A stretch of DNA of 64,000 nucleotides from an uncultured Bacilli bacterium (GTDB taxonomy: Bacteria > Bacillota_I > Bacilli_A > RF39 > UBA660). A model generated the notes under the pieces. That model had not been told where the DNA came from. It did no database searches and saw only the letters and a list, made by a program, of their open reading frames with translations. The number at the start of each line of letters is the position of its first letter. Position 1 is the stretch's first letter. A program made the translations under genes and the position numbers. The stretch lies in the NCBI GenBank assembly GCA_934101115.1, contig CAKOPW010000005.1:18697-82696 (forward strand), in the 5' to 3' direction. Positions 21,698 through 63,231 of the stretch are shown here, piece after piece.

Positions 21698-22414
21698 TAT
21701 AAAAAATATATATGTAAAACTAACTGATAAATACATATATACATACTCCGATAAAATAAAAAAATATGATTCTAAATACATTAAAAATGGAACTGTTGAT
21801 GACGTATTTAAACTGATAGACTATTTAAATAAAATATTAGAAAAAAATATCTTTAAGATAAAATATACTTTTATTTTAGATACTCTTCTTTCCAACAGTG
21901 ATCTTTTCACTTTTAAATATGTATTTGAATCTATGGGATTAATTAACTATAAAATAATAAATGACTTAGATATAATAAAAAATCATGTAACAGATAATAA
22001 TATAATAATTATGAATTGGTCTAGTTCTATAAATTATTGTTTTAAATTAAAAGATGAAATAGTTGTAAATAAATATAATACTAATGTAATAAATAGTTTG
22101 GATAAAGATTATATTTTAATGATTGGAGATACAAATATTTCAACTAAAATAAAAAAGCCCATATATAAATATGAGCATGAAGAATTGGTAATATTTAATT
22201 ATTTATAAATATTATCTTTTTTTTGGTATAATAATTATAAACAAAAAAACGAAGCAGTCCCCCTGAGAACTGCTTCAAAGAATAAAAAGGGGTTGGCTAG
22301 TGTGATACTAGCACCAATTCGCCTGTAAGTGAATTGGTACTACATATACTAATCGATTTGGGTATTTTTGTCAACACTTTTTTGACTTTTTTTAAAAAAT
22401 TTTATGGAGGAAAT

Positions 22415-24400
22415 ATGGAACTAGAAAATGTGAAAGGAATTGGTCCAAAAACAAAAGAATTATTGAACAAATTAAACATATATAATGTGGATGAATTAGT
22501 AAGATATTATCCTTATCGTTATAACGTTTATAGTCCAACTAATATACTTGATCATGAAGATGAACAAATATGTATAACAGGGATTATTGAAAGTGTTCCA
22601 AAGTTAAGTTACATAAAAAGAAACTTAAATAAAATTGGATTCACGTTTTTAACTTCAAATATTAGATGTAATGTTGTTATTTTTAATCGAGCTTTTATAA
22701 ATAGATTTTTAACAGTTGGAAAACCTATTACTTTAATAGGTAAATATAAAAAAGATAAAAATCAATTTATTGCTAGTGATATAAAACTTACACCAATATA
22801 TAAAACAGAAGTAGAACCAGTATATCATTTAATAAATGGATTAAAAACATCAACACTTGAAAATAGTATAAAATCAATTCTTCAAAGTGATATAAAAATA
22901 AATGAAATAATACCTGAATATATAAACGAAGAATATAATTTTATTTCAAGTAAAGCTGCTATTAAGGAACTACACTTTCCAACAAGTTTAGAAGAAACAA
23001 AGAAAGCAAATTTAAAATTGAAATACGAAGAATTATTTGAATTCTTATTTAAAATAAATATTATCAAATATCGTGATCAATTATTTAATGATTATGTGAT
23101 AAAACACGTTGATGATGAAATGCTTGCCAATGTAAAAAAAATGATTCCTTTTAGCTTAACAAAAGATCAAGAAGAAGCTTTAAATGAAATAGTAAAGGAC
23201 TTTAATAGTTTTAAAAGAATGAATAGACTTGTTATGGGTGATGTAGGTTGTGGTAAAACTATAGTTGCTTTTATAGCAGTTATTTTAAATCTAGAATGTG
23301 GATATCAAAGTGCCATTTTAGCTCCAACAGAAGTTTTAGCAGTTCAACATTATGATAACTTTAAAAAACTTTTTCCAAATGTAAAAACTGAATTGCTTGT
23401 TGGAAGTAAAACAAAAAAACAAAAGGAAGTAATAAAAGAAAAACTTAAAAATGGAGAAATAGATGTCCTTATTGGAACTCATGCCATGTTAGAAGATGAT
23501 GTAGAGTTTGAAAACATTGGATTAGTTGTAACTGATGAACAACATCGTTTTGGAGTTAATCAACGAAAAAGTTTACAAAACAAAGGTGAGTTTGTTGATG
23601 TGCTTTATCTTTCTGCAACACCAATACCAAGAACCTATGCTTTAACTATATATGGAGATATGGATATATCTATAATTAAAGAAAAACCAGCAGGAAGAAA
23701 AGAAATAAAAACTACTGTTTTGAAATTTAGTGAGTTAGATAAAGTCATATCTTCAATCGAAGAAGAAGTAAAAAATGGACATCAAGTGTACGTTGTTGCT
23801 CCTTTAATTGAAGAAAGTGAATCAAATCTTAATGATGTAAATACAATATATGATTTATTAAGTAAAAATTTAAAAGACATAAGAATTGATATATTACATG
23901 GTAAAATGAAAAATGTTGATAAAGATAAAGTTATTAACAATTTTAAAGAAGGAAACTTAGATTTAATAATTTCTACAACGGTAATTGAAGTGGGAGTAGA
24001 TGTTAAAAATGCAACACTAATGGTTATATTTAATGCTGAACGTTTTGGACTTGCAACTTTACACCAATTAAGAGGAAGAGTTGGAAGAAACAGTTTGGAA
24101 TCAAAGTGTATTTTAATAAGTGATCAAGAGAAGGAAAGACTTCATGTACTAGAAGAAAGCAATGATGGCTTTTACGTATCTAAAATGGATTTTAAAATGC
24201 GTGGAAGTGGAGATTTATTTGGTATTAGACAAAGTGGAGATATGATATTTAAAATAGCTGATATTAAAAAAGATTATAAAATTCTTGTTCAATGTAAAAA
24301 AGATGTTGATGCTTTTATTTTAGATAACATTGAAAATAGTTTTAGAAATTATAAATACTACAATACCATTTTAAATAGTTTAATGAACAATAATGATTAG
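22415..24400 (+). CDS. recG: ATP-dependent DNA helicase RecG
   Basis: Wedge domain, Walker A GDVGCGKT, DEQHRFG, QLRGRVGR. Start taken at the internal MELENVKG. Confidence 0.9.
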   Translation: MELENVKGIGPKTKELLNKLNIYNVDELVRYYPYRYNVYSPTNILDHEDEQICITGIIESVPKLSYIKRNLNKIGFTFLTSNIRCNVVIFNRAFINRFLTVGKPITLIGKYKKDKNQFIASDIKLTPIYKTEVEPVYHLINGLKTSTLENSIKSILQSDIKINEIIPEYINEEYNFISSKAAIKELHFPTSLEETKKANLKLKYEELFEFLFKINIIKYRDQLFNDYVIKHVDDEMLANVKKMIPFSLTKDQEEALNEIVKDFNSFKRMNRLVMGDVGCGKTIVAFIAVILNLECGYQSAILAPTEVLAVQHYDNFKKLFPNVKTELLVGSKTKKQKEVIKEKLKNGEIDVLIGTHAMLEDDVEFENIGLVVTDEQHRFGVNQRKSLQNKGEFVDVLYLSATPIPRTYALTIYGDMDISIIKEKPAGRKEIKTTVLKFSELDKVISSIEEEVKNGHQVYVVAPLIEESESNLNDVNTIYDLLSKNLKDIRIDILHGKMKNVDKDKVINNFKEGNLDLIISTTVIEVGVDVKNATLMVIFNAERFGLATLHQLRGRVGRNSLESKCILISDQEKERLHVLEESNDGFYVSKMDFKMRGSGDLFGIRQSGDMIFKIADIKKDYKILVQCKKDVDAFILDNIENSFRNYKYYNTILNSLMNNND

Positions 24401-24852: not shown

Positions 24853-24995
24853 CGTCAATAAGAATAAAATAGTTGTTAAACATATTGACAGATTTTTAAA
24901 ATTTGTATATCATTATATATAGCATGATAGTCTCCCTATCGTGCCGATATATCTAACGATTTTAACAATGTTAGTATATCAACCAAAACCCCCTG

Positions 24996-25027
24996 GCCAT
25001 CCTTTATGGATGGCACTTTTTTTTTTA
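24996..25027 (+). terminator. rho-independent terminator
   Basis: gccatcctttatggatggc followed by a run of ten T residues. Confidence 0.65.
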
Positions 25028-25465
25028 AAATAATTTATTTTGTAGTGTAATATATTTTTGGTCACTACTTTATTCAATGAAAAAATAGGAATTAATTTAA
25101 TTCAATATTTATATGGGTTTACAAGCATATAGGAGAATGAAAACAATTCTTGGAAACAACTTGGGAACGAGTTTTGTTAAAAAAGTATAGTATAATATAA
25201 TTAATAGAGGTGTTTCACGTGTGTAAATGGGAAGATATTCAAACTAAAACTGAATTAGAATTTGTATTTGAGATTATAAAAGAAAAAAATAGGAGATAGT
25301 AGTATTAAAAGAATTTTTTCCTTTGATGATGCTATTCCTAGAAAAAATAATAATAAAATAGAATATAACACATTAGAAGAACCATTATATATTTTATTTG
25401 ATAATGATTATTGCTTAATAATAGAGTTTACTAATTATTCAAACATCTACCTTGATTATAGAAAA

Positions 25466-25876
25466 ATGACACCAGAAAAAATAAAACAAGCTATTGGAAG
25501 TGTTTCAAATAAAGATATTGATTATTTAAATAATTATCATAGAATTCACGGATGGGATTTTGATGATAATCGAAATAGAATTGAAGATAGTTTTGGAATG
25601 AAAGAAATTATTGAAATACATGGAAACTATGATAAGATAAGGGATATTCAAATAGATGGATTCAATGATTCATATGAAAAATGGATAAGTGATGGTAGTA
25701 GTTCATCAATGATTACTATTCCGGCTGGTGGTGATTATTTTAAGTCCATAAAATTTATATTAAATAATGGCATTAAAATAAAAATGGGTCCTCAGGATGC
25801 TGAAATGGATGGATATTATGATTTAATAATAGAAGATGGTAATAACATAATAAAATATAGAAGTGATGAAATATAA
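25466..25876 (+). CDS. hypothetical protein
   Basis: 136-aa ORF. The frame is open upstream without an ATG and a poly-A tract nearby suggests a possible frameshifted longer gene. Confidence 0.3.
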   Translation: MTPEKIKQAIGSVSNKDIDYLNNYHRIHGWDFDDNRNRIEDSFGMKEIIEIHGNYDKIRDIQIDGFNDSYEKWISDGSSSSMITIPAGGDYFKSIKFILNNGIKIKMGPQDAEMDGYYDLIIEDGNNIIKYRSDEI

Positions 25877-25957
25877 CATATCGTAAAAAACAAAACTAAA
25901 ACTATGTTTTAATTGCCTATCTGATAGTTCTGTAGTATTCTATAAGACAGGTGAAGG

Positions 25958-26150
25958 TTATAGAATCTCATGACCTAAAAATGCTTTTTTGTTGGCAATT
26001 GAGTTGGCAAGCTGTAGTGCGAATAATGATTTACCGACTTTAGGTTTAGATACTAATAAGTAAACACCTTTAGACCTCATTATCCCATCGATTATGATGT
26101 CTTTTTTTTATGGTTTCTTTTAGTTCTTCAAAAGCCTTCATATCTATATG
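25958..26150 (-). pseudogene. fragment of a P-loop (AAA_25/RepA-type) replicative helicase or primase-associated ATPase gene
   Basis: Minus-strand reads DIIIDGIMRSKGVYLLVSKPKVGKSLFALQLANSIANKKAFLGHEIL followed by a stop. Only a Walker A fragment survives and the rest is truncated or frameshifted. Confidence 0.4.
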
Positions 26151-26159
26151 TCTCCTTTA

Positions 26160-26390
26160 TTTGATTAGCTCTAGCTTCTAAGTATGGAATATCTATATTT
26201 AAGTATTTAACAACCTCTTGCATTAGTACTGCATTATTTGGAACATAATATTTTTCACTTTCTAATTTTTTCTTTATAGTGCTTTTAATAACTAATGCAT
26301 TATTTCAACCAACACATGCTAGTTTCATTAAATCACTTAAATTACACCATTGTTTTGCTATTAATTTTAATGATTCACTTGCTGTCACAT
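26160..26390 (-). pseudogene. fragment of a DNA-binding (excisionase/HTH-like) gene with an internal stop
   Basis: MTASESLKLIAKQWCNLSDLMKLACVG, a stop, then NNALVIKSTIKKKLESEKYYVPNNAVLMQEVVKYL in the same frame. Confidence 0.3.
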
Positions 26391-26407
26391 ATTATCACAT
26401 CCTTTCC

Positions 26408-26657
26408 TATAATTCGTATTCTTCTTCATTCCATTTATCGTATGGAACAGCATTTGCTTCTAACATATTAGTTTCTGAGTTATATCTTATATACTTAGCG
26501 ATTCTTAATTCCAATAAAGCATCTTTAATATCTTCTTTTGTATCAGAACAATATTTTTTACTTCAAATTTAGTAGTAATATTATTAGTTAATACCATTGT
26601 TAAGAATCCTTTGGCTCTTAAAGATATATTTGGATCTTTTAAAAATTTATCAAAAAC
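26408..26657 (-). pseudogene. RepA_N-like replication initiator fragment, frameshifted
   Basis: FLKDPNISLRAKGFLTMVL... and IKDALLELRIAKYIRYNSETNMLEANAVPYDKWNEEEYEL lie in two different frames. Confidence 0.35.
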
Positions 26658-26866
26658 TATATAAATGCTTTAAAGTTTCCCGTTTTATTACTTCCTTTCT
26701 TCTAAAATAGAGTAGAGTTATCCCTGGGTTCGCCCATATATTCGAAATTTTAGTTATTTCGTAACTTCCGTGCCAATAGGGTTATCATTTCGATCTTGCA
26801 TTTTTATAAGTTCAACATATCGGTGATTTTCACAACTACTAAGTTATAATTAATCATCTCCTCTCT

Positions 26867-26942
26867 GAACGATAACATCAATCGTTGCAAATATAACATT
26901 CAAAAAAGTTTAAGTTGATGATTTTGAACGAAAAATTCGTTC
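26867..26942. promoter_or_regulatory. pair of related palindromes (candidate C-box operators) plus promoter upstream of the controller gene
   Basis: GAACGATAACATCAATCGTTGC at 26867-26888 and the perfect palindrome GAACGAAAAATTCGTTC at 26926-26942. The second lies just upstream of -35 TTTACA (26948-53) and an extended -10 TGgTAAAAT (26969-77). Confidence 0.4.
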
Positions 26943-27020
26943 TTTTTATTTACAATAATTTTTTTTAATGGTAAAATGGTTATAGAAGAGAATAGAAGGT
27001 TTTTAAAAAGAGGTGTAATT

Positions 27021-27542
27021 ATGGCATTAAATGATTTTAAAGATATGGTTGAGAATGCTAGAAAAATAAAAGGTTATTCACAACGAGAATTAGCTAAAAT
27101 GATTGGAATGAGCCAAAGTACATATAATGATACAATTAATGGTAAAATTAAAAAACCAGATATAGATATATTAAAAAAAATTGCTGAGGAGTTAGATTTA
27201 TCTTTAGATTTAATGCTTAAAGAATCAGGATATGGTGAATCATTTTCTATATACGGAATTGATAAATATAAAAATAAATCCACTAAGGATTTAAAAAATT
27301 TAATTGATGAATATAAGAAGTCAGAACTTAAATTATTAGAATTTGATAAACAAAAAAGAGATGTTACTAGGAAAGCAAGGCAAAAAATGTTCACTACAAT
27401 TGAACATATGAAAATAATAAAAGATAGTAAAGATGGTTTATATACAATTGATAAAGCAATTGATGATGTTCAATCTGCATTTGATCAATTAGAAATGGTA
27501 GAACATAAATATGATTATAAAAAGCTACCTAAAGACTTATAA
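27021..27542 (+). CDS. XRE-family HTH regulator (candidate R-M controller protein)
   Basis: HTH GYSQRELAKMIGMSQSTYNDTINGK. First gene of the R-M operon, with a coiled-coil C-terminal extension. Confidence 0.7.
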   Translation: MALNDFKDMVENARKIKGYSQRELAKMIGMSQSTYNDTINGKIKKPDIDILKKIAEELDLSLDLMLKESGYGESFSIYGIDKYKNKSTKDLKNLIDEYKKSELKLLEFDKQKRDVTRKARQKMFTTIEHMKIIKDSKDGLYTIDKAIDDVQSAFDQLEMVEHKYDYKKLPKDL

Positions 27543-27556
27543 TCAGGAGGTACAAC

Positions 27557-29605
27557 ATGAAAAAGAAAAAATATAATGTAATTGATTTATTTGCAGGATG
27601 TGGGGGATTATCAGAAGGATTTCTACAATCCGAAAGATTTAATTTTTTAGCTCATATTGAATGGGAAATGCCAATGGTTGAAACTTTAAGGAATAATCTT
27701 GTTAAAAGATGGAACTACTCAAAAGAAGATGCTGAAAAATCAGTAATAAGATTTGATATACAAAAAACTGAGGAATTATTTAAAGGTAATTGGTCAGACG
27801 ATTCAATAAAAGATTATGGTGAAGATAATAATAAAGAAATAGTTGAAAAAGGAATGGATAACTTGATTGGTGATAAGAAAGTTGATGTTATTATTGGTGG
27901 ACCGCCTTGTCAAGCATATTCACTAGCAGGAAGAGCTCAAAGCCCAAATTCAATGAAAGATGATTATAGAAATTACTTATTTGAGAGCTTTGTTAAAGTA
28001 GTTGATCATTATAAACCTAAAGTTTTCGTTTTTGAAAATGTTCCAGGAATATTAAGCGCAAAGCCAGGAGATAAATTAGTAATAGATAGAATTTATGAAG
28101 CATTTGAAAAGATAAATTATGAAATAAGAAATCCAAAAATGCTTAAAAATGCGATTTATTCTGCTGCAGATTTTGAAACGCCTCAAGATAGACATAGGGT
28201 CATTATAATAGGAGTAAGAAAAGATTATAAAGATAATCCGGAAGATTTTTATCTAGCTTTAGATGAATTAAAATCAAAGCATCCAAAGAAAACAGTTAGA
28301 GATGCCATTGGAAATTTACCTAAATTCAAGCCTTTGGTCGAACCTAGAAAAGGTAAAAATGGTAATATATCACATGAATTAATTGGTAATGAAATTATTC
28401 CTGATCATGAAGCAAGATATAATAATTTAAGAGATATTGAAGTATTTAAAAAATGGATTAAAAATAATATGAATTCTTATACTACTGAAGAAAAGCTTAA
28501 ATTTTATACAGAAACAACTGGTAAAAAGAGCAACCATAATAAATATAGAAATTTAGATTGGGATAAGCCATCTCCAACAATTGTATCTCATTTATATAAA
28601 GATGGTTTAATGTTTATACATCCAGATGAAAAACAAGCTAGATCAATAACTGTTAGAGAAGCTAGTTTACTACAAGGATTTCCTATAGATTTTGAATTTC
28701 TTGGTTCAAATGCATACAAATACAAAATGATAGGAAATGCTGTACCTGTTCAATTTGCTAAAAATATTTCATTAGCATTATGTAATGTTCTTGATGAAGA
28801 TGATTCTAATAATATTTGTTGTGCAAAAAAGAAAGATGATGTTTTAACACTAAAAAATAATAGACCAAAAAGAGTATTAAACGTTTTGGTTGCATGTGAA
28901 GAAAGTCAAAGAGTTTGTACAGAATTTAGAAGATTAGGACATAATGCATATAGCTGTGACTTACTTAATTGCAGTGGTGGACATCCTGAATGGCATTTTA
29001 ATATGGATGTTTTAAAGGTAATTAAAGATAAAGGTGGAATTTTAGAAAATGGTGAAAAGGTAAAAATAGATGGTGATTGGGATTTAATGATAGCTCATCC
29101 ACCCTGCACGTTCTTAGCTGTAAGTGGTGCAAAATGGTATTATCACCCTGATGATAAAGGTTTACCAATTGAACAAAGAAGACCTCATCCCAAATTTCCA
29201 AATAGAGCTCAAGATAGAGAAGATGGTGCTAATTTCTTTATAGCATTAGCTACTGCTAATATAAAATATATTGCAGTGGAAAACCCTATAGGTATAATGA
29301 GTAAAAGATTTAGAAAACCGGACCAAATAATTCAACCATATTGGTTTGGTGATCCATTTTCCAAAGCAACATGTCTATGGTTGAAAAATCTTTCGCCATT
29401 AAAGCCAACAAAAATGGTTGATAAAGGTGAATATGTGGAATTAAAAAGTGGTAAAAGATTACCAAAATGGTATTCAGATGCATTAACAAAAGCAAAAACA
29501 CCAGAAGAAAGAAGAACTTTAAGAAGTAAAACATTCCCAGGCTTTGCTAAAGCTATAGCAGAACAATGGAGTAAGGAGATATTAGAAAATGAAAGTATAT
29601 GTTAG
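27557..29605 (+). CDS. DNA (cytosine-5)-methyltransferase with a second, minimal C5-MTase-like catalytic core fused at the C-terminus
   Basis: Domain 1 (aa 1 to about 410) carries motif I DLFAGCGGLSEGF, IV GGPPCQAYSLAGR, VI FVFENVPGIL and X IGNAVPVQFAK. Domain 2 (aa about 440 to 682) carries DLMIAHPPCTFLAVSG, IAVENPIG and FPGFAKAIAEQW. Confidence 0.85.
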   Translation: MKKKKYNVIDLFAGCGGLSEGFLQSERFNFLAHIEWEMPMVETLRNNLVKRWNYSKEDAEKSVIRFDIQKTEELFKGNWSDDSIKDYGEDNNKEIVEKGMDNLIGDKKVDVIIGGPPCQAYSLAGRAQSPNSMKDDYRNYLFESFVKVVDHYKPKVFVFENVPGILSAKPGDKLVIDRIYEAFEKINYEIRNPKMLKNAIYSAADFETPQDRHRVIIIGVRKDYKDNPEDFYLALDELKSKHPKKTVRDAIGNLPKFKPLVEPRKGKNGNISHELIGNEIIPDHEARYNNLRDIEVFKKWIKNNMNSYTTEEKLKFYTETTGKKSNHNKYRNLDWDKPSPTIVSHLYKDGLMFIHPDEKQARSITVREASLLQGFPIDFEFLGSNAYKYKMIGNAVPVQFAKNISLALCNVLDEDDSNNICCAKKKDDVLTLKNNRPKRVLNVLVACEESQRVCTEFRRLGHNAYSCDLLNCSGGHPEWHFNMDVLKVIKDKGGILENGEKVKIDGDWDLMIAHPPCTFLAVSGAKWYYHPDDKGLPIEQRRPHPKFPNRAQDREDGANFFIALATANIKYIAVENPIGIMSKRFRKPDQIIQPYWFGDPFSKATCLWLKNLSPLKPTKMVDKGEYVELKSGKRLPKWYSDALTKAKTPEERRTLRSKTFPGFAKAIAEQWSKEILENESIC

Positions 29606-31172
29606 AAAAATTGATGATCAATGTGTAACTCATCAAATTAGTTTGAAAAATATTGTATTTAAGGAATTCTTTAATGAGTTAAATAAATTCGAAGTTTCAG
29701 GAGTAAAAAGTGGTTATAGTGAAATGGTCAGTATTTTACCAGCAACTGATTTGAGATTTGATTCTGGATTGAAACATGTAATATCAAGAGAAGGTAATCT
29801 AGAAGTTGGCGATGTTATTGTTTTATATAAAGAAGCTGATAAGTATGAATTAGAGCTAATTAAGCCTACTGATTCAAAGTATACTTTTGTACAAGAATTA
29901 TGTGAGAGAGACAAAAGACATACTTTGCTTGATATTGAATCCAATGAAATCAAAAATGTTGATAGAAAAGAAGAATATAAAAATTGGTTAGTCAATAAAG
30001 GTAAATATACTGATGAAACTATAAAGAATTATGTAAGATATATATCTTATATTTATGATAAAGGTTTAAGCGATAAAGATTTATATACAATTAAGGATAC
30101 ATTAATCATTGATGAATTATTATCAAAATTTAAAAATCAAGAAGAATATATTCAATATAATGAACAAAATAACAGAAATCCATATTATGCTTTGTTACAA
30201 TATAAAGAATTTATTGAAAATACAAATACGCATAAGATTGATGATGTTGATAGATTAGTTGGAGCATATAATAAAATTTATTATGGAATTCCTGGAAGTG
30301 GAAAAAGCTATACCGTTGATGCTAAATTTAATGAAGAAGAATATAAAGTATTTAGAACTACTTTTCACCCTGAATATACAAATAGTGATTTTGTAGGGCA
30401 AATTATTCCTATGGTAAAAGATGATAAAGTAAAATACGAATTTCATCCTGGATCATTTACGCTTGCATTAAAATATGCATTAGAGAATAAAAATAAAAAA
30501 GTATGCTTAATAATAGAAGAAATTAATAGAGGTAATGCTTCTGCAATCTTTGGTGATATATTTCAGTTGCTAGATAGAACAGAAAAAGGAAGAAGTAAGT
30601 ATGAAATATATAACGGTCCTATTCTAGATTATTTTGAAAAAAATGGTATTAATATGAATAAAATATATATTCCATCTAATATGTGGATTATATCTACTAT
30701 GAATACAAGTGATCAAAATGTATTTACTTTAGATACTGCATTTAAACGTAGATGGAAAATGGAATATATAAAAAATGTATTTGCTGATGATGAAAAATCA
30801 AAAGAATTAAGAAATAAGGTTATTCCTTTAGGAGAAAAATATCCTAATGTAACATGGGAGAAATTTGTTAACAAAATAAATAATCATATTATTTCTGATA
30901 CATCAGGAATAAATGGTGAAGATAAACAGCTTGGTATGTATTTTGTTTCTGTTGAAGAAATTAATGATCCAAAAGAATTTGCTGAAAAAATTTTGTCTTA
31001 TTTATGGGAGGATGTTGCAAAATTAAATACTTCATATTGGTTTGGATCAATATCTTCCTATGATGAATTAATCGATTTATTTAACAAAAATTCTTTAGAT
31101 ATATTCAATTCACTATTTGATGATGAAATTAAAGTAACAGAAGAATATACAATTAAAACCGTAGGAGAATAG
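29589..31172 (+). CDS. McrB-family AAA+ GTPase restriction subunit (LlaJI R1-like)
   Basis: GIPGSGKSYTV Walker A, IEEINRGNASAIFGD, and the McrB signature WIISTMNTSDQNVFTLDTAFKRRW. About 230 aa of N-terminal DNA-binding region is unassigned. Confidence 0.8.
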   Translation: MKVYVRKIDDQCVTHQISLKNIVFKEFFNELNKFEVSGVKSGYSEMVSILPATDLRFDSGLKHVISREGNLEVGDVIVLYKEADKYELELIKPTDSKYTFVQELCERDKRHTLLDIESNEIKNVDRKEEYKNWLVNKGKYTDETIKNYVRYISYIYDKGLSDKDLYTIKDTLIIDELLSKFKNQEEYIQYNEQNNRNPYYALLQYKEFIENTNTHKIDDVDRLVGAYNKIYYGIPGSGKSYTVDAKFNEEEYKVFRTTFHPEYTNSDFVGQIIPMVKDDKVKYEFHPGSFTLALKYALENKNKKVCLIIEEINRGNASAIFGDIFQLLDRTEKGRSKYEIYNGPILDYFEKNGINMNKIYIPSNMWIISTMNTSDQNVFTLDTAFKRRWKMEYIKNVFADDEKSKELRNKVIPLGEKYPNVTWEKFVNKINNHIISDTSGINGEDKQLGMYFVSVEEINDPKEFAEKILSYLWEDVAKLNTSYWFGSISSYDELIDLFNKNSLDIFNSLFDDEIKVTEEYTIKTVGE

Positions 31173-31173
31173 T

Positions 31174-32433
31174 ATGAAATTTTCCGATAAAGTAATTTTC
31201 AAAAATGGATATGAAGAAGACAATTTTGTTGGTATAAAATATAGAAAAGATAAAATTAATATCTTTTTACCTATCGGATATAACAAGGATTATTTTAGCA
31301 CAGATGATGAGTTAAGTCCTGAACAAAAAGTGGATTTATTATTATTACTAAAGACTATTACACTAGTTAAAAATTCTAATAATGAAAAAACTGATTTTGG
31401 TGATGATATAGGGAATAACGATGAAGTCCCATATAATTCATTAATATGGATTATAAATGACTATTTTAACAATGGATTATATCAAGAAATCGAAAAAAAA
31501 TACTCTCAAAAAAGTCATGGTAAAATTAATTGGAAAAAAACACTTAATTCAGAGCATTACTTTGAAAACAATAGTGTTACATATATTAATCCTTATTATG
31601 AATCAAATATACAAAGGAGTACTTTAATAACTGAACTTAATAATTATTGTGTTCATAAAAGTTATAAATATATAGGATTTCTATTTGGAAAAGTATATCT
31701 TCCGGAATGTAATATTAGAGAAGAAAGAATTAAAGATAATATTAAATACTATATTGATGTTATTAATAAAGAATTAGCAAAATCTTTTAATGATAGAAAA
31801 AAAATGTTGTTAACTAATATGAAAAGGATTTTTGAAATGTCTTTTGAAGATAGTTTTGAGAATCAACCAACATATGGAACAAGGCGATATGAATATGCTT
31901 GGGAAAAAATGGTAAATGAAACTCTTGGATCTAAAATTGATATTAGTAAGTTTTTTCCTAATGCTTTTTGGAATATACAAGGTAAGATTGAAGAAGATAA
32001 ATCAAAATTAAGACCAGATTCTATTTTGATAGATAATAATTCAAAAAAATTATATATACTTGATGCAAAGTATTATAAATATGGAATTACTAGTAATATT
32101 TCTGATTTACCACATACTGATTCAATTCAAAAACAAATAACATATGGGGATCATATATCAAATAATCCGCACACATATGGTTTTGAAAAAAATAATATAT
32201 ATAATGCATTTATTATCCCATTTAATAAAAACAAAGAACCTTTTAAATGTGATGAGAGCATAAAATATATGGGATTTGCAAATAGTGCATGGAGAGATAA
32301 AAAGGAAACATATAATTATGAACGAATTTCTTTATTATTAATTGATACAAAATATATGATAGATTGTTTTTATCAAAAAGAACGTGCTAATCTTGAACAA
32401 TTAATTGAATTGATAGAAAAATCTTCATTATAG
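31174..32433 (+). CDS. McrC-like PD-(D/E)xK nuclease subunit (LlaJI R2-like)
   Basis: LRPDSILIDNNSKKLYILDAKYYK, a PD..D-x-K motif. Translationally coupled to the McrB-like gene. Confidence 0.7.
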   Translation: MKFSDKVIFKNGYEEDNFVGIKYRKDKINIFLPIGYNKDYFSTDDELSPEQKVDLLLLLKTITLVKNSNNEKTDFGDDIGNNDEVPYNSLIWIINDYFNNGLYQEIEKKYSQKSHGKINWKKTLNSEHYFENNSVTYINPYYESNIQRSTLITELNNYCVHKSYKYIGFLFGKVYLPECNIREERIKDNIKYYIDVINKELAKSFNDRKKMLLTNMKRIFEMSFEDSFENQPTYGTRRYEYAWEKMVNETLGSKIDISKFFPNAFWNIQGKIEEDKSKLRPDSILIDNNSKKLYILDAKYYKYGITSNISDLPHTDSIQKQITYGDHISNNPHTYGFEKNNIYNAFIIPFNKNKEPFKCDESIKYMGFANSAWRDKKETYNYERISLLLIDTKYMIDCFYQKERANLEQLIELIEKSSL

Positions 32434-32624
32434 ATGTTTTGCGTCACTCGCGTCACTTAAATGTATAGGGTGCTCACCTAAAAATAAGTGTCATAAAAAA
32501 ATAGATATGTTAAAAAAACATAACATATTTAATAAGTACGTTAAAAAAGCATATATAAGATTAATTTATATATGTTTTTATATGTTATAATATATATAAT
32601 TATTTATTCTTAGGGGGAATTTGT

Positions 32625-35345
32625 ATGGATGAAAGTATTAACTTCATTAATCGGAAAATTAATGATTTGAATATTAAGATAGAAAAAAATATAGACGATT
32701 CTGTTGATAATAGGGGCTATATGTCTCAAAATATCATAAAGAGTTTAAGAGATTTAGTAGAATATATAGCATTTAAAGTATATGTAATTGAGAATAGAAA
32801 GTGTTATCTTGATTATAATCATGTTAATACTGGCTTAGCAATAAAATATATTAAATGTTTAAGTAAACATGAAATACTAAAGAACTTTCATGCTTTATTA
32901 GAAATTGGTCCTTCACATAATAGTTATAGTGAGGATGGCTCAATTAGATTAATGGTTAAATATCAAGAGTATCTTATTGATCTAAAAAGATATTATTTTG
33001 ATTTGTTTAAAGAAAAAATATTAACAAATTTATATAAATTTCCCATATTTAAAATAGACTCATCTTTATACGATTATTATAAAGAAATATATAATAAGTT
33101 AATTCAAATAAAATTTGATAATAGTGAACGAGTTTTAGGTAACGCATATTATATTAAGAAAACAAAACCTGTCGCAATAGAAGATAGAGTTTTTTATGAA
33201 TTAACATTAACACCAGCTACCGACTATGTTAATAAATTTAATAGAATTATTTTTTATTCCCCAGTTAGAATTCCGGATAATTATGCTATTAAAATAGGCT
33301 ATGTAAGGAAAAATATAAAATCATTTAAATCAGAAGTAGAAATCAAGATAATTAATAATTATGAGATATTTATCAAACCGGCCGAAATAAATAGTTTGTA
33401 CAAAATATTTGGTATTAATAAAAGAGTATCATATCGTGCAAATGAATATGATTATTTTATGCGATTATTAAAAAATAATCGTTGGACATTAAATCATATT
33501 ATTAATTTGAATGATGATGGATTTGAAATAATTAGACAGGAGTCATCAGTTTATAATACTCATCATTTGTTTGAATTGTTAGAAATGATAAGAAATGTTA
33601 TTACTAACAATAAACCTGGTCACAATGTTTTAAACTACTTAATACATGTATTGAGAAATTCTGTAGTTATTGATCAAATAGGTGATGAGCAATGTAAAAT
33701 ACTATCAGATTTATATCTAGAGTATGGATGTAATGTTTTTGAAACTATGCCATATGCTTCTTCATTAAATGGTCATAAAATATCTGTATCAGATTTATTT
33801 GAAATAATTGATCCAGTAAATAGAGAACATGAGTTCTTTGGAAGAAAGATAACTGATTTATGCAATTCGACAAATAGGATTTATTTTTCTTTTAAGGAAT
33901 TAGGTTATGATTCAGAATATGGTAAAAAACTTATAAAAGAATTTAATAAGCGCGTTTATTACAAACATACAGATAGATATTTAGAAACAATTGGAAATAA
34001 AGTCTATATAAGAGGATTTGAAGAAAGTACGATAAAAATTATAGATGTTTTAAAAAGTAAAACTAATGAAAAATATTCTGATTATAAAAATATGTATGAT
34101 ATGTTTTCAATTTTTAGCGATTATGAATTTACTGATAGTATCAAGAAAAATATTTCTGAAAAAATATATATTAATTCAAAAGTTGGTTTAATATATGGCT
34201 CTGCAGGAACAGGCAAAACTGAAATGATTAAAATAATATCTAAAATATTTGATGGTAAAAGAATTGCTTTTTTAGCCAAAACTAATGCTGCTCTAAACAA
34301 TATTAAAATTCGAGTTGGTAAAGAAGCAATGGATAACTATGAATTTTATACTATTGATAAATTTATTGATGATTCTATAAGAGATAGTTATGATTTAGTT
34401 GTTGTGGATGAGTGTAGTATGGTAGAGAATGATATAATGCTTCAAATGTTAAAGAAAAACAATTATGATTGCTTACTATTAGTTGGTGATATATATCAAA
34501 TTGAAGCAATTGAGTTTGGTAACTGGTTTAGATTTGCAAAGGAATTGATTCCTGAAAATTCATATGAACTAACTGAAAATTTTCGAACTACGAATCATGG
34601 ATTAAAGAATTTATGGTCTAAAGTAAGAAATTTAGATGATGGCATTACCGAGAAAACAATTGATGAAGCTTATTCAGAAATATTAAGTGAATCAATATTT
34701 GAAAATAGAGAAGATGAAGAAATTGTTCTATGCCTTAATTATGATGGCCCATATGGGATTAATAATATAAATAGATATTTGCAGATGACAAATAGAAATG
34801 AACCAATAGAATGGGGAATAAATACATATAAGGTTGGAGATCCAATTATATTTAGTGATGTAAGGAGATTTTCTAATGTTTTATATAATAATCTTAAAGG
34901 AAAAATTCTAAAAATTGAAAAGAATGAAGACAGCATAACTTTTGAATTATTTGTGGAAAGAAGAATTTCTGATTTCGATGCCTTTGCAAATAACATTAAA
35001 GTTATTTCTAGGGAAGATGATGGATCGGTTATAGAAATAAAGGTATTACGAAAGGATGATGATGATAAAGATGATGAAGTAGGATATATTGTTCCTTTCA
35101 CGGTATCCTATGCTACATCTATACATAAATCGCAAGGTTTAGAATTTGATTCTGTTAAAATTATTATTTCTGATGAGTCCGAAGAATTAATTACTAAAAA
35201 TATATTTTACACTGCAATAACTAGGTCTAAAAATCATCTTAAAATATATTGGAGTCCAGAATGTCAAAATAAAGTAATAAAGAACATGAGGGATTATACT
35301 TTAAAAGATGATTTAATTATTATAAAAAATAAAATGAAAAACTAA
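32625..35345 (+). CDS. SF1 helicase (RecD/TraA-like, AAA_30 plus UvrD_C) with about 500-aa uncharacterised N-terminal region
   Basis: Walker A GLIYGSAGTGKTEM, Walker B LVVVDECSMV, and C-terminal motif VSYATSIHKSQGLEFDSV. Nothing recognised in aa 1-500. Confidence 0.7.
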   Translation: MDESINFINRKINDLNIKIEKNIDDSVDNRGYMSQNIIKSLRDLVEYIAFKVYVIENRKCYLDYNHVNTGLAIKYIKCLSKHEILKNFHALLEIGPSHNSYSEDGSIRLMVKYQEYLIDLKRYYFDLFKEKILTNLYKFPIFKIDSSLYDYYKEIYNKLIQIKFDNSERVLGNAYYIKKTKPVAIEDRVFYELTLTPATDYVNKFNRIIFYSPVRIPDNYAIKIGYVRKNIKSFKSEVEIKIINNYEIFIKPAEINSLYKIFGINKRVSYRANEYDYFMRLLKNNRWTLNHIINLNDDGFEIIRQESSVYNTHHLFELLEMIRNVITNNKPGHNVLNYLIHVLRNSVVIDQIGDEQCKILSDLYLEYGCNVFETMPYASSLNGHKISVSDLFEIIDPVNREHEFFGRKITDLCNSTNRIYFSFKELGYDSEYGKKLIKEFNKRVYYKHTDRYLETIGNKVYIRGFEESTIKIIDVLKSKTNEKYSDYKNMYDMFSIFSDYEFTDSIKKNISEKIYINSKVGLIYGSAGTGKTEMIKIISKIFDGKRIAFLAKTNAALNNIKIRVGKEAMDNYEFYTIDKFIDDSIRDSYDLVVVDECSMVENDIMLQMLKKNNYDCLLLVGDIYQIEAIEFGNWFRFAKELIPENSYELTENFRTTNHGLKNLWSKVRNLDDGITEKTIDEAYSEILSESIFENREDEEIVLCLNYDGPYGINNINRYLQMTNRNEPIEWGINTYKVGDPIIFSDVRRFSNVLYNNLKGKILKIEKNEDSITFELFVERRISDFDAFANNIKVISREDDGSVIEIKVLRKDDDDKDDEVGYIVPFTVSYATSIHKSQGLEFDSVKIIISDESEELITKNIFYTAITRSKNHLKIYWSPECQNKVIKNMRDYTLKDDLIIIKNKMKN

Positions 35346-35479
35346 TAAGTATATACATATGTATGTGCTTTTTTGTATTAAAATATATTCATTGAATATT
35401 ATAATAATATACCGATAGCGGTATAAATATATTGAAAAATCATACTGGCAACGGTATAATGTAATTAGAGGTGAAAATT

Positions 35480-36406
35480 ATGGAATTTATGACTACAAAA
35501 GAAGCTGTACAAAAATGGAATGTTAGTGAAAGAAGAATACGAAAATTATTACTAGATGGAAGAATTGAAGGTGCTGTAAAAGTAGGTAATAATTGGAATA
35601 TTCCTATTAATGCTAATAAACCAGCTGATAAAAGAAGCATGAAATTAGATAATACTGAATTTAAATTTGATTTACCTGATAATTATTTTGATAAAGTTGA
35701 TGAATTAAATAAAGAATTAAATTCTAAAAGACCTATATCAAAAGAAACATTAAAATCTTTAAAAGAATCTATAAATTTAGAGTGGACTTATAATAGTAAC
35801 GGTATAGAAGGAAATACACTAACTTTAAGAGAAACACAAGTCGTTTTAGAAGGTATTACAGTTGGTGGTAAATCTTTAAAAGAACATTTGGAAGCTATTA
35901 ATCATGAACAAGCAATATTATTCTTAGATGATCTTATTAAGGATAAAGAACCAATCACAGAATGGAATATTAAAAATATTCATCAATTAGTATTAAAAGA
36001 AATAGATAATGATAACGCTGGTAAATATAGAGATGAAAATGTAAAAATAAAAGGTGCTACACATATTCCACCAGATTATTTAATTGTTCCTGAATTAATG
36101 GAAAAATTAATTATTAAATATGAAGATTGGAAAAAATATCATCCAATTATTAGAGCAGCATTATTACATGGAGAATTAGTTAAAATACATCCATTTGTTG
36201 ATGGTAATGGCAGGACTTCAAGATTAGTTATGAACTTATCTTTAATGAATAGCGGATATCTTCCAGTAATTGTAAAAAAAGAAAAAAGATTAGAATACTA
36301 TAATGCTTTAGATAAAGCACATACTACTGGGAATTATACAGATTTTGTTAAATTAGTTAATGAATTAGAAATTGAAATGTTAAATAAATATTTAGAACTG
36401 TTATAA
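35480..36406 (+). CDS. Fic/DOC-family protein with N-terminal HTH
   Basis: Fic motif HPFVDGNGRTSRL. N-terminal excisionase/MerR-like HTH KEAVQKWNVSERRIRKLL. Confidence 0.85.
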   Translation: MEFMTTKEAVQKWNVSERRIRKLLLDGRIEGAVKVGNNWNIPINANKPADKRSMKLDNTEFKFDLPDNYFDKVDELNKELNSKRPISKETLKSLKESINLEWTYNSNGIEGNTLTLRETQVVLEGITVGGKSLKEHLEAINHEQAILFLDDLIKDKEPITEWNIKNIHQLVLKEIDNDNAGKYRDENVKIKGATHIPPDYLIVPELMEKLIIKYEDWKKYHPIIRAALLHGELVKIHPFVDGNGRTSRLVMNLSLMNSGYLPVIVKKEKRLEYYNALDKAHTTGNYTDFVKLVNELEIEMLNKYLELL

Positions 36407-36817
36407 AAAATAGCGAGAAAAAATATTTCTTGCTATTTTTTTAAATAAACAAAACAAATGTTCTGATACATGTTGCTTAAAACTAATTTGTGTGTTAATA
36501 TGATAGTGTTATAAGCGGACACGAAAAAAACATGTTATAAACATGTTCGCTTGTACTGGTAGCTGGTAACTACCGATAAGAATTAAATTGCCTTTCGGCT
36601 TACACAAAACGAGAACAATGAATTGATTAACAACACGACTCCTATTCTCATTTATAATGATACACAAAAAATGTTTTTGTGTCAATGGGTATAATAACAG
36701 AAGTTTACATATTAGTCAATTCTGAAAGGAGGATTAATATGTTTTTTAATTATTTATTATAGTATTTAGGTAAAGTAGTTACCAGTTATCTCAAATTTGA
36801 AGTAAGGAGAGATAAAC

Positions 36818-37567
36818 ATGACAAGAAAAATTTTAAAAAATATTTTTGATAACTTAGAACAGTCATTATTTAATGATATGAATATACGTATTGAGCATGA
36901 TTTAGAGGATGGTAAATATAGAGAATATTTAGTTAAAAATGTCCTTGAAAAAATTATACCTTCAAAATATAGTATTACAAATGGTTTTATTATTGATAGT
37001 GATAATAATATATCCGATGAAATGGATATAATTATATATGATAGAAATTATGTGCCACCTTTTTTTGATGAAACTTATACTGTAGTACCAATAGAGGCAG
37101 TAATTGTAGTAATACAGGTTAAAACCACACTAACTGCATCTACATTAAAAAATAGTATCACAAATTTAAACTCAATTGATAAACTTAATGCTAAAACTGG
37201 TGGAAAAATAATATCTGCAACATGTGACTTAATTGAGGAAAAGAGATATATTTGTCCATACAAAGTTATAGTAGCTTCTAAGACTGATTATGTTGATGAA
37301 CATGATTTTGCAAGTGATATGAAAAATATTGATATTATTTATATTGTTGAAAAAGATAAATCATTAACCGTAAAGCATAAAAAAAATATAAAAGCTGTTG
37401 TTTGTGAAAATAAAGAAGAACTAATAAAAAATCAAAGCAACTATGAATTAGAAGTGATTAAAGAAAGTAGATTAGCATTTTTTGCTTTGAATTTATTGGA
37501 AAAGATGAAACTAATAAATAATTCAATCATAATTAATTATGAAGAATATATAAAGGGGGCTAAATAA
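36818..37567 (+). CDS. PD-(D/E)xK-like nuclease-fold protein (candidate effector)
   Basis: DIIIYD...IEAVIVVIQVK resembles a restriction-endonuclease-like core. About 130-aa C-terminal region is unassigned. Overlaps the next gene by 1 nt. Confidence 0.35.
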   Translation: MTRKILKNIFDNLEQSLFNDMNIRIEHDLEDGKYREYLVKNVLEKIIPSKYSITNGFIIDSDNNISDEMDIIIYDRNYVPPFFDETYTVVPIEAVIVVIQVKTTLTASTLKNSITNLNSIDKLNAKTGGKIISATCDLIEEKRYICPYKVIVASKTDYVDEHDFASDMKNIDIIYIVEKDKSLTVKHKKNIKAVVCENKEELIKNQSNYELEVIKESRLAFFALNLLEKMKLINNSIIINYEEYIKGAK

Positions 37568-38490
37568 TGAGTAATTCATTGACTGAAGATTTTAATAAGT
37601 TTGTAGAAATTATTTCGCTAAATAGTAAAGAAGAAGAGGATATTAAAAGTAAACATAATAGTCTTATCAATATGATTATTGCTGATCCACCAAAAGGCTA
37701 TAATATTGTTAAAACAAGGCTTAGTGGTTCATATGCAAAGCATACAGTTTTAAATGAATATAACGTGGATAAACTACCAGATGTTGATATTATTACAATT
37801 ATAGATTCTTGTGATAAAAGTGTAGATGAGATAAATGCTGATTTTTTAAACTATTTTGAAGATAAAAAAGGTAAAGTAACTTCAAATATTAGGCAGCAAT
37901 CTAATTCTATTGGAATAATATATTCTAATATAAGCGTTGATATGGTAATTGGTATTCTTAAAGATGACAAATTAAAAATATGTTCTAATAAAAAACATGA
38001 TTGGATATCATCGAATGCCTTGATACATATTGATTACATGATAAAAAAGAATAAAGAATATGAAGGATTCAGTTATTATAGTTTAATGAAACTTTTCAAG
38101 TATTTAAATAAAGAACAATTGAATAATAAATTAAAGTCATATACATTAGAACAATTGATTCATAAATGTTGTCCAATTCCAACAGTAGGATTAAGATTAT
38201 ATCAAGCATTTGCTAAGACACTTGATAATATAAAAGAAATATCATTAATTACGGAAATTAGAGATTGTTGCGATGAAGATAAGGATGGTTATGATGAAAA
38301 AGATGTATTGATATTTGATTCCTTTAAAGAAGAAATTGCAAATTACTCTAGTTTAGCAAAAGAAGCATTAGATGGTAACAGAAAAAAATGGCAAGAGATA
38401 TTTGGAGATAGGTTTCCATGCCAACCAAATGAAATAGTAAAGAATGAGGCAAATTATGACAAAAGTCATACACCATGGTGTTATAAATAA
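37567..38490 (+). CDS. SMODS/CD-NTase-like nucleotidyltransferase
   Basis: Pol-beta NTase signature LSGSYAKHTVLNEYNVDKLPDVDIITII, i.e. GS...DxD. Confidence 0.5.
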   Translation: MSNSLTEDFNKFVEIISLNSKEEEDIKSKHNSLINMIIADPPKGYNIVKTRLSGSYAKHTVLNEYNVDKLPDVDIITIIDSCDKSVDEINADFLNYFEDKKGKVTSNIRQQSNSIGIIYSNISVDMVIGILKDDKLKICSNKKHDWISSNALIHIDYMIKKNKEYEGFSYYSLMKLFKYLNKEQLNNKLKSYTLEQLIHKCCPIPTVGLRLYQAFAKTLDNIKEISLITEIRDCCDEDKDGYDEKDVLIFDSFKEEIANYSSLAKEALDGNRKKWQEIFGDRFPCQPNEIVKNEANYDKSHTPWCYK

Positions 38491-38941
38491 AAAAAATATA
38501 GAAATATCTATAAAAAAATATGACTTTAAGATTCTTGATTATAATGAAAATAATGAATACATAAAAACAATTATTGAAAAAGATTACGCAAAAAGTTTTA
38601 ATATAGATTTTAATGGGATAATTAAAGTAGAATGTATAATAATGCGTAAGATGTATGATATGTTTTGTGTTTATACGTATCCAAAATTTAAAGAAATATC
38701 TAATATAATTCCAAAGAAGGCATTTTATCATATGTACGAAGATGGTAGTATTTGTTATGCGCCTCCTAAAAGACCATTGGTTGAAAAATGGAGTTTAGAA
38801 GATTTTATAAGTTCTATAGATTCCTTTTTTCATAACTATTTTTCGATTGAATATATTGGAGAAGGCGAATTATTTCAACTTGAACATGGTGAAAAAGGAT
38901 TAATACAATATGAATTTATTTATAGAGTTTCAGAAAATTAA
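38444..38941 (+). CDS. small E2 (UBC-fold)-like protein
   Basis: HMYEDGSICYAPP resembles the E2 HPN...G.IC active-site region. 165 aa. Overlaps the upstream gene. Confidence 0.4.
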   Translation: MRQIMTKVIHHGVINKKNIEISIKKYDFKILDYNENNEYIKTIIEKDYAKSFNIDFNGIIKVECIIMRKMYDMFCVYTYPKFKEISNIIPKKAFYHMYEDGSICYAPPKRPLVEKWSLEDFISSIDSFFHNYFSIEYIGEGELFQLEHGEKGLIQYEFIYRVSEN

Positions 38942-63154: not shown

Positions 63155-63231
63155 GGTCTGTTGGTGAAGTGGTTTAACACATAACCCTCTCAAGGTTACA
63201 TACATGGGTCCGAATCCCATACAGATCACCA
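63155..63231 (+). tRNA. tRNA-Glu-like with CUC anticodon, encoded CCA
   Basis: Hand-folded cloverleaf. Acceptor stem GGTCTGT/ACAGATC, D-loop with GG, anticodon stem TAACC/GGTTA with loop CTCTCAA, T-arm ATGGG-TCCGAAT-CCCAT. It follows the recalled B. subtilis tRNA-Glu pattern but carries C34 and C55. Confidence 0.55.

Follow-up and report, generated by a model that had tools for sequence, protein, structure and literature searches.

This analysis concerns a gene in a 64,000-nucleotide (nt) stretch of DNA from an uncultured Bacilli bacterium (the window, meaning the whole of that stretch), which has a GC content of 25%. Its open reading frame (ORF) of 682 amino acids (aa) joins a canonical C5 DNA methyltransferase (the N-module, equivalent to M1) to a small second module (the C-module, equivalent to M2) that according to structural modelling has the Rossmann-type catalytic fold of the C5 methyltransferases. 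The fusion is genuine, and is no artefact. Judged by sequence, the region 26976-32433 is a LlaJI-type restriction-modification operon of the Helicobacter pylori kind, consisting of a candidate helix-turn-helix (HTH) regulator, the fused M1-M2, R1 and R2. By analogy with LlaJI, we consider it rather probable that the fused protein unites two methylases that each modify one strand of an asymmetric site. The components of the operon are as follows.

26976-27542, + strand: HTH_3 (Cro/C1-type) protein, 188 aa (Pfam HTH_3 8e-15; PADLOC HTH_VI, capH-like)
27557-29605, + strand: fused M1-M2 methyltransferase ORF, 682 aa; ATG start, stop codon 29603-29605
27557-28801, + strand: N-module, aa 1-415, canonical C5 DNA methyltransferase (PF00145, TIGR00675)
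28805-28867, + strand: inter-module linker, aa 417-437, including CCAKK (aa 421-425); predicted local distance difference test (pLDDT) score < 50 in the full-length AlphaFold model
28868-29602, + strand: C-module, aa 438-682, mini C5-methyltransferase-like, M2-equivalent (phrog_757; AlphaFold; Foldseek)
29589-31172, + strand: R1, McrB-like AAA+ GTPase (AAA_5), with an N-terminal B3-like domain at aa 1-125 (29589-29963)
31174-32433, + strand: R2, LlaJI-family (McrC-like) nuclease subunit (PF09563 RE_LlaJI 3.9e-33)

The fused gene and its operon

From its profile scores and motifs the N-module is a C5 DNA methyltransferase. It scores 206.2 bits against Pfam PF00145 (cutoff 22; 1e-60) and 180.1 bits against TIGR00675 (dcm; cutoff 100.65; 8e-53), and its sequence matches in the Protein Data Bank (PDB) are M.HaeIII, DNMT1 and M.HhaI. 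Orthologues of 412-429 aa that stand alone share 69-80% identity with it. A first-pass annotation of the window, made from the sequence alone, had described the first 410 aa as a complete 5-methylcytosine (5mC) methyltransferase with motifs I, IV, VI and X. The profile matches agree with this, and these motifs, together with motif VIII, are located at the following positions.

27584-27607, + strand: motif I, DLFAGCGG, aa 10-17
27902-27913, + strand: motif IV, PPCQ, aa 116-119
28034-28042, + strand: motif VI, ENV, aa 160-162
28184-28198, + strand: motif VIII, QDRHR, aa 210-214
28733-28747, + strand: motif X, GNAVP, aa 393-397

An identical, uninterrupted 682-aa protein is encoded, with the same neighbours, on at least nine contigs from independent metagenome studies, and the 90% cluster of the fused protein has 97 members on tens of contigs of up to 284 kb. 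The fusion is retained in approximately 60 protein clusters (650-733 aa) at 54-92% identity, NCBI proteins of Acinetobacter faecalis among them, with a linker that ranges in length from about 0 to about 70 aa and is about 20 aa in the window protein. The only candidate for an internal start of a separate M2 is a TTG at 28886, with a weak AAGAG upstream. The sole 'split' copy, a stand-alone database protein of 239 aa (P0001), stems from a scaffold in which ten Ns stand at the module junction, and this gap has generated a spurious entry. That two genes were joined into this ORF by an assembly, scaffolding or frameshift error, for which one could cite the two separate genes of most relatives and that 239-aa gene call, is extremely improbable and is rejected in view of the N-gap with its duplicated flanks, the uninterrupted copies from different studies, and the variants of 54-92% identity that keep the fusion with linkers of differing length. 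The first-pass annotation had named such an artefact as a way in which its proposal could fail. It had also called the arrangement unusual whatever its meaning; the fusion is real, but with some 60 clusters and several fusion or fission events it is less unusual than was supposed.

The gap itself lies at 760-776 of the public scaffold (L006), corresponding to approximately 28809 in the window and thus exactly at the inter-module junction, and the ten Ns are flanked by a duplicated 'taatatt'. It is possible that the strongly conserved C-module gives rise to branching assembly graphs, causing the scaffold to break at this point.

The restriction genes follow directly. The first 17 nt of R1 are shared with the end of the methylase gene. 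R1 is matched by NCBIfam McrB (3e-16), by the PDB McrB entries 6hz4 and 6ut6 (5e-16) and by PADLOC REase_II (6e-64), while its aa 1-125 match PDB 6C5D, entitled 'LlaJI.R1' (4e-13). These matches identify it, at the level of sequence, as a McrB-like GTPase with a B3-like N-terminal DNA-binding domain. The entry 6C5D is said to be the structure of the N-terminal B3 domain of H. pylori LlaJI.R1 reported by Hosford and Chappie in 2018, a study that PMC7680126 and PMC12707154 cite. R2 scores 115.6 bits against PF09563 (cutoff 23.6), with a PADLOC REase_II match at 5e-49.

In LlaJI of Lactococcus two methylases modify both strands of the asymmetric site GACGC/GCGTC (PMC1459862), and both methylases are required for this site (PMC1459862; PMC12707154). 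The LlaJI system of pNP40 (L. lactis) has the gene order M-M-R1-R2, so that two methylase activities precede the restriction genes as in the window, where the two C5 methylases are present as two modules of C5-methyltransferase fold within one ORF. The window R1 is 40% identical to R1.LlaJI of pNP40 over the AAA+ part, and R2 is 30% identical to R2.LlaJI over the full length (over 422 aa). The methylases differ more. M1.LlaJI (465 aa) and M2.LlaJI (379 aa) are separate canonical paralogues with 50% mutual identity; those of the window are fused, and the N-module is only about 25% identical to either. An HTH gene precedes the methylases in the window, unlike in pNP40.

The closer counterpart is found in H. 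pylori, where R1 of LlaJI binds DNA site-specifically via its B3 domain (PMC7680126; PMC12707154). The H. pylori loci (L049) have the order M (414 aa)-small (256 aa)-R1 (448 aa)-R2 (404 aa), i.e. the same set of components as the window. The N-terminus of this R1 matches 6C5D at 4.5e-71, and so these loci are the 'H. pylori LlaJI' system. H. pylori M1 is 64% identical to the N-module, and the 256-aa mini M2 is 70% identical to the C-module and scores 1.2e-64 against phrog_757; its annotation is 'hypothetical protein'. The H. pylori genes for M1 and M2 are separate and overlap by 14 nt, whereas in the window they are fused. By these comparisons of sequence the window system belongs to the H. 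pylori LlaJI type, with M1 and M2 fused.

From its position, the HTH_3 protein may control or regulate the operon. In L017, the closest relative, a copy at 53% identity stands upstream of the fused gene, and no copy was detected by tblastn in the split-gene loci.

Fold, catalytic residues and cofactor site of the C-module

The motifs of the C-module are located as follows, and include the strings that had been picked out in it at first pass as IV-, VI- and X-like (AHPPCTFLAVSG, AVENP and FAKAIA).

28892-28906, + strand: ACEES, at the position of the glycine loop
28952-28960, + strand: SCD
28982-28996, + strand: HPEWH
29093-29128, + strand: motif IV, AHPPCTFLAVSG, aa 513-524; PPC aa 515-517, with Cys517 at 29105-29107
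29273-29287, + strand: motif VI, AVENP, aa 573-577; ENP aa 575-577
29360-29380, + strand: SKATCLW
29522-29560, + strand: RSKTFPG and FAKAIA (FAKAIA aa 663-668)

The C-module was modelled by AlphaFold2 from an aligned set of 65 diverse relatives (A1). The model has a pLDDT of 96.4 and a predicted template modelling (pTM) score of 0.91, and shows the strand-helix order of a Rossmann methyltransferase. When the model was compared with the PDB by Foldseek, the best 50 matches were all C5 DNA methyltransferases (E 3e-7 to 1e-4; template modelling (TM) score 0.4-0.5), with DNMT1, DNMT3A/B, M.HaeIII, M.HhaI, ZMET2, MET1 and 3G7U as neighbours. Matches in BFVD, a library of viral structures, are likewise C5 methyltransferases. 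Alignment of the C-module with C5 methyltransferases by hhalign (E 2.9e-5) places PPC(T) on PPCQ and ENP on ENV. The fold predicted for the second module is therefore that of a C5 methyltransferase, and the possibility raised at first pass that it might lack a Rossmann methyltransferase fold is not borne out. The recognition insert is only about 40 aa in length, lying after the K-x-TCLW strand and ahead of the C-terminal helices; the recognition domain of the N-module is about 150 aa. The full-length AlphaFold model consists of two well-folded domains connected by a disordered linker, with a pTM of 0.63. A fixed interface between M1 and M2 was considered, but this pTM and the disordered linker give it no support either way.

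We note that two of the BFVD matches, A0A6J5NPY6 (1126 aa) and A0A6J5SE15 (1397 aa, with a helicase/UvrB N-terminal part), carry the mini module inside large multidomain proteins of uncultured phages.

The C-module matches phrog_757 'DNA methyltransferase' with an E value of 2.8e-62 over profile positions 12-226 of 247, and by this match belongs to a separate 'mini-Dcm' family. Coliphages, T1-like ones and many others, contribute their 'Dcm-like C5 cytosine methyltransferase' to the family; the Dcm of the T1-like phage SH2 matches the profile at 1.1e-82, and 1518 phage records match the SH2 protein. One member has been studied experimentally. The Dcm of phage K42, encoded by a 711-bp gene, triggers retron Ec86, makes 5mC on multicopy single-stranded DNA (msDNA) as detected by LC-MS (liquid chromatography coupled to mass spectrometry), is linked to CCWGG, and is inactive as a C82A/E128A/K175A/K176A mutant (bioRxiv 10.1101/2023.08.16.553469). 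Phage KarlJaspers, 95% identical to K42, has a 711-bp gene with a 236-aa product that carries C82, E128, K175 and K176 at the same positions, and SH2 Dcm shares this numbering. KarlJaspers Dcm and the window C-module are 26% identical (8e-12 by blastp; 1.5e-20 with the A1 profile), and their alignment pairs C82 with C517, E128 with E575 and K176 with K603. The catalytic half of the C-module is thus common to an enzyme proven to form 5mC. The phage mini-Dcm proteins and the C-module share size, PPCT, ENP, K-x-TCLW and R-S-x-T/P-x-GFA-x-A. They differ in that the phage enzymes are stand-alone orphan methylases and keep the glycine loop as LFDGSG, while the C-module is fused to M1 within a restriction-modification operon and reads VACEESQ at this position (aa 445-451). 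The glycine-rich loop for S-adenosyl methionine (SAM) is indeed lacking, as the first-pass annotation had stated.

Despite the altered loop, the catalytic and cofactor-side residues are strongly conserved in A1. The catalytic Cys517 and the ENP Glu575 are each kept in 64 of the 65 relatives, and Lys603 and Thr605 are invariant. On the cofactor side Glu448, Ser466, Asp468 and His480 are invariant, and Cys447, Ser450 and Cys467 reach 94% conservation or more. Of the two classical glycine positions, the first holds Glu in 49 of the 65, and the second holds Gln in 54 and Gly in 11. The conservation of the cofactor-side half (module residues 12-55) is 0.66-0.73, compared with 0.68 for motif IV and 0.62 for motif VI. 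It is as strongly conserved as the catalytic motifs, which indicates a working site rather than a decayed one.

In class I SAM methyltransferases the acidic residue that ends strand 2 is the usual ligand of the ribose; Asp468 is an invariant acidic residue at the end of strand 2. The variants of motif I within the family form a graded series (FDGSG, CDLTG, CEYSG, CEESQ) in which the acidic residue is kept throughout, and intermediate loops (CDLTG, CEYSG, CEQFG) bridge the glycine-loop and CEESQ extremes. The (A/G)-C-E-x-S-(Q/G) form of the loop occurs in the window module, in H. pylori M2 and in many marine and soil phage proteins. Because the cofactor half is conserved, intermediate loops exist and the Asp is invariant, the C-module most likely has an unusual but functional SAM site, and we infer that it would transfer methyl groups despite its Cys-Glu-Glu-Ser-Gln loop.

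The N-terminus of the second module had been described as Cys-rich. The CCAKK string is present, but it lies in the disordered linker and there is no conserved Cys-rich motif; the only conserved cysteines on the N-terminal side of the C-module are C447 and C467, which are in strands of the Rossmann core. A reading of this N-terminus as a zinc finger or metal cluster was considered and set aside, as CCAKK lies in a disordered segment of variable length.

Conserved pairing with M1 and the function of the C-module

The family of the C-module is large: clustering at 90% identity gives at least 8000 clusters, and clustering at 50% gives 4482 representatives. Nearly all of its members are proteins that stand alone, with lengths of 200-260 aa. 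The nearest relatives are 75-84% identical, yet they come from different phyla. Genomes were scanned for relatives of the C-module using an alignment of closer relatives (A2), with one genome per species, and 80 loci were returned. In 74 of these, H. pylori included, an M2-type gene lies directly downstream of an M1-type gene. The M1 orthologues of the split loci are 412-429 aa in length and 52-80% identical to the N-module. A McrB-like gene comes next in most M1-M2 pairs, and an R2 of LlaJI type is detectable by tblastn in about a third. The order M1-M2-R1 is kept in Bacillota, Bacteroidota, Spirochaetota, Fibrobacterota, Actinomycetota and Pseudomonadota; many of these loci include a LlaJI R2, and gene calls on longer contigs give the four-gene order M-small-AAA_5-RE_LlaJI. 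Stop and start codons overlap between the genes of split operons.

Among the 80 scanned loci only the closest relative (L017, a metagenome-assembled genome (MAG) from Bacilli) is fused. On a tree of the N-module, a crude estimate by the unweighted pair group method with arithmetic mean (UPGMA) and Fitch parsimony, fused and split forms interleave and at least seven changes between the fused and split states are needed. In almost every fusion pair the C-module shows stronger conservation than M1. Judged from sequence comparison, this is a Rosetta-stone pattern, pointing to M1 and M2 proteins that act together.

The B3-like N-terminal domain of R1 was detected in only 24 of the 80 loci, at 27-41% identity, compared with 52-86% for M1 and M2 (L017-L096). 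The methylases are thus far more conserved than the DNA-binding domain of the restriction subunit. In some operons (L009, L014) R1 has an HTH_73 domain instead of the B3-like one.

Two further observations were made in the scanned loci. In split operons of Alphaproteobacteria MAGs (L014-L016) a gene for a very-short-patch repair endonuclease (vsr) overlaps the start of M1 (e.g. L014 6351-6773); such a gene would be expected where real 5mC is made, and its presence there fits this. The window has no vsr. In Phocaeicola, Bacteroides and Flavobacterium (L070-L073, L065) there are mini enzymes that are 62-66% identical to that of the window without M1, R1 or R2. These solo copies sit among small unknown genes and resemble cargo of prophages or mobile elements; the copy in L071 is near a UDG-family (uracil-DNA glycosylase) protein and a tubulin/FtsZ-like fragment.

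Taken with the requirement of LlaJI for two methylases, these data suggest that the window system has an asymmetric site, that its two strands are methylated by different modules, and that unmodified DNA is cleaved. M1 would use its recognition domain, about 150 aa in size, to find the asymmetric target, and would methylate a cytosine on one strand. The tethered M2, with its insert of about 40 aa, would flip and attack a cytosine on the other strand, Cys517 acting as nucleophile and Glu575 as proton donor to N3. The fully modified site would then be spared by the complex of the B3/McrB-like R1 and the LlaJI nuclease R2, while unmodified DNA would be cut. The fusion would set a 1:1 ratio of the M1 and M2 activities and co-localize them.

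A division of labour of this type has precedents. M.FokI, M.Alw26I and M.Esp3I are single polypeptides with two methyltransferase domains, one for each strand of an asymmetric site. Fusions of the M.FokI kind join two N6-methyladenine (m6A) domains, or one m6A and one m5C domain, of normal size and with canonical SAM motifs. By contrast, both domains of the window protein are of C5 type, and the second is minimal and has no glycine loop.

A number of points weigh against this assignment of one methylating module to each strand. Both glycines of FxGxG are replaced in the window C-module (Glu at aa 449 and Gln at aa 451). The C-module has no match in Pfam even at E values of up to 10, PF00145 included, none in NCBIfam or PADLOC, and none in sequence and profile searches of the PDB, and the NCBI label of the H. 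pylori copy is 'hypothetical protein'. The alignment with KarlJaspers Dcm starts only at motif IV, and the 65 residues on the cofactor side differ; the family member that has been assayed, K42 Dcm, is distant and keeps the glycines. Close relatives of M2 are also found solo, in Bacteroides mobile elements and in phages, so that M2 can act without M1, and the full-length model predicts no fixed interface between the two. Lastly, the C-module is not orthologous to M2.LlaJI, so the allocation of one strand to each module rests on the position in the operon. M2.LlaJI was tried as an orthologue and rejected, being a canonical enzyme of 379 aa; comparison of the C-module with M1.LlaJI and M2.LlaJI by blastp gave nothing significant (E 0.012 and 0.15). 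The alignment to the LlaJI methylases that the first-pass annotation proposed as a check thus revealed no significant similarity to either one. Its suggestion that M1 and M2 of LlaJI are fused here stands for operon position, synteny and probable role, but not for orthology to M2.LlaJI.

It is unlikely that the C-module is an active enzyme of C5-methyltransferase fold that makes no ordinary use of SAM, the second strand then bearing something other than a simple methyl group as its protective mark. The pocket formed by Cys-Glu-x-Ser, Ser-Cys-Asp and His would in that case bind another cofactor or promote a different chemistry at the flipped cytosine. Such a pocket would account for the loss of the SAM-loop glycines alongside the invariant Glu448, Ser466, Asp468 and His480 and the near-invariant Cys447 and Ser450, and the cofactor half aligns neither with the glycine-loop phage Dcm nor with the C5-methyltransferase profile. 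It is conserved as strongly as the catalytic motifs, so something binds there. The graded motif I series with its retained acidic residue nevertheless suggests one site that has drifted rather than a new one, and the Asp that ends strand 2, an invariant residue, is where SAM enzymes classically bind ribose. There is no gene for cofactor biosynthesis beside the operon, either among the window genes or in the related loci, and the vsr gene beside some operons fits ordinary 5mC.

The two modules could instead both be active but on different, unrelated sequences, M2 being an independent short-motif methylase that travels with M1. We find this quite unlikely. Members of the family function alone in phages, K42 Dcm being linked to CCWGG, there are solo M2 relatives in Bacteroides, and a fixed interface is not predicted, all of which would be in keeping with independence. 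But an M1-M2-R1 order kept across six phyla, with LlaJI R2 in many loci, would be surprising for unrelated activities, as would the overlapping stop and start codons of the split operons and the recurrent fusion, and the arrangement parallels the need of LlaJI for both M1 and M2 (PMC1459862).

It is very doubtful that the C-module is a non-catalytic partner resembling DNMT3L, which would aid DNA binding or orientation by M1 or regulate it. The absence of a canonical SAM loop, the very small recognition insert, the strict pairing and repeated fusion with M1, and the presence of DNMT3A-DNMT3L complexes among the structural matches might all be read in this way. Yet the catalytic Cys and the ENP Glu (64/65 each), Lys603 and Thr605 are conserved, unlike in decayed paralogues, and the cofactor half is equally constrained; neither the loss of catalytic Cys and Glu nor the relaxed cofactor pocket of a DNMT3L-type protein is seen in the C-module. 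Close relatives turn up without M1, both in Bacteroides elements and, beside other orphan methylases, in the early regions of phages, and in nearly all fusion pairs it is the C-module that is the more conserved. The solo relatives argue against a purely regulatory role, and M2 may still have a short specificity of its own. The first-pass annotation had offered a regulatory or non-canonical domain as its alternative; a regulatory or inactive domain is disfavoured by the near invariance of the catalytic Cys, of the Glu in ENP and of the residues on the cofactor side.

Returning to the proposed pair of methylases acting on the two strands, all components are of known kinds, i.e. a canonical C5 methylase, a phage-type mini-Dcm and a LlaJI/McrBC-like restriction pair, and the H. 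pylori version of the operon is already in the literature. What is new is that an unannotated small protein appears as the regular M2 of H. pylori-type LlaJI systems, and that this M2 is, by prediction, an enzyme of C5-methyltransferase fold that has no glycine loop and has been repeatedly fused to M1. The fusion provides a Rosetta-stone link from a canonical C5 methylase to a very abundant small protein for which there is no Pfam, NCBIfam or PADLOC model, and assignment of the latter as M2 should improve the annotation of restriction-modification systems and the interpretation of methylomes in gut bacteria and pathogens. A clade that keeps the Cys and has no glycine loop offers a test of how far SAM binding tolerates the loss of motif I, or of other chemistry, and the fused protein, being encoded by one gene, makes a convenient reagent for such a test. 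We think it improbable that the 'CEES' clade, which comprises the standard M2 of H. pylori-type LlaJI and the C-module of the window, has a rebuilt pocket that makes no conventional use of SAM and generates a different second-strand modification, at C5 or derived from the C6 adduct. If it did, the protective marks of this restriction-modification system would be of two chemically distinct kinds.

The surrounding defence island

The genes downstream of the operon extend it into a region, 26976-38941, that from the sequence matches is a defence island. The further components are as follows.

32625-35345, + strand: SF1 (superfamily 1) helicase-like protein, 906 aa (PADLOC candidate family PDC-S53, full length, E 1.6e-292)
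35471-36406, + strand: Fic/DOC-domain protein carrying an HTH at its N-terminus (matches to the defence families SoFic and PDC-S04, E approximately 1e-33)
36818-38941, + strand: CBASS-like (cyclic oligonucleotide-based antiphage signalling system) operon of three genes
36818-37567, + strand: NucC/DUF6602 nuclease of the CBASS-like operon
37567-38490, + strand: SMODS oligonucleotide cyclase of the CBASS-like operon
38444-38941, + strand: E2-like protein of the CBASS-like operon

On the upstream side, the segment of approximately 2 kb at 24853-26975 lies between a 147-aa ORF that follows recG (22334-24400) and the HTH gene, and contains only one ORF, of 136 aa. This segment may be the boundary of the island. 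It contains no tRNA or Rfam element, the only tRNA of the window being a tRNA-Glu at 63155-63231. The 136-aa ORF (25466-25876) belongs to no family and also accompanies the operon on contig L001. The PDC-S53 helicase accompanies the operon on other contigs, and is truncated or rearranged in L003.

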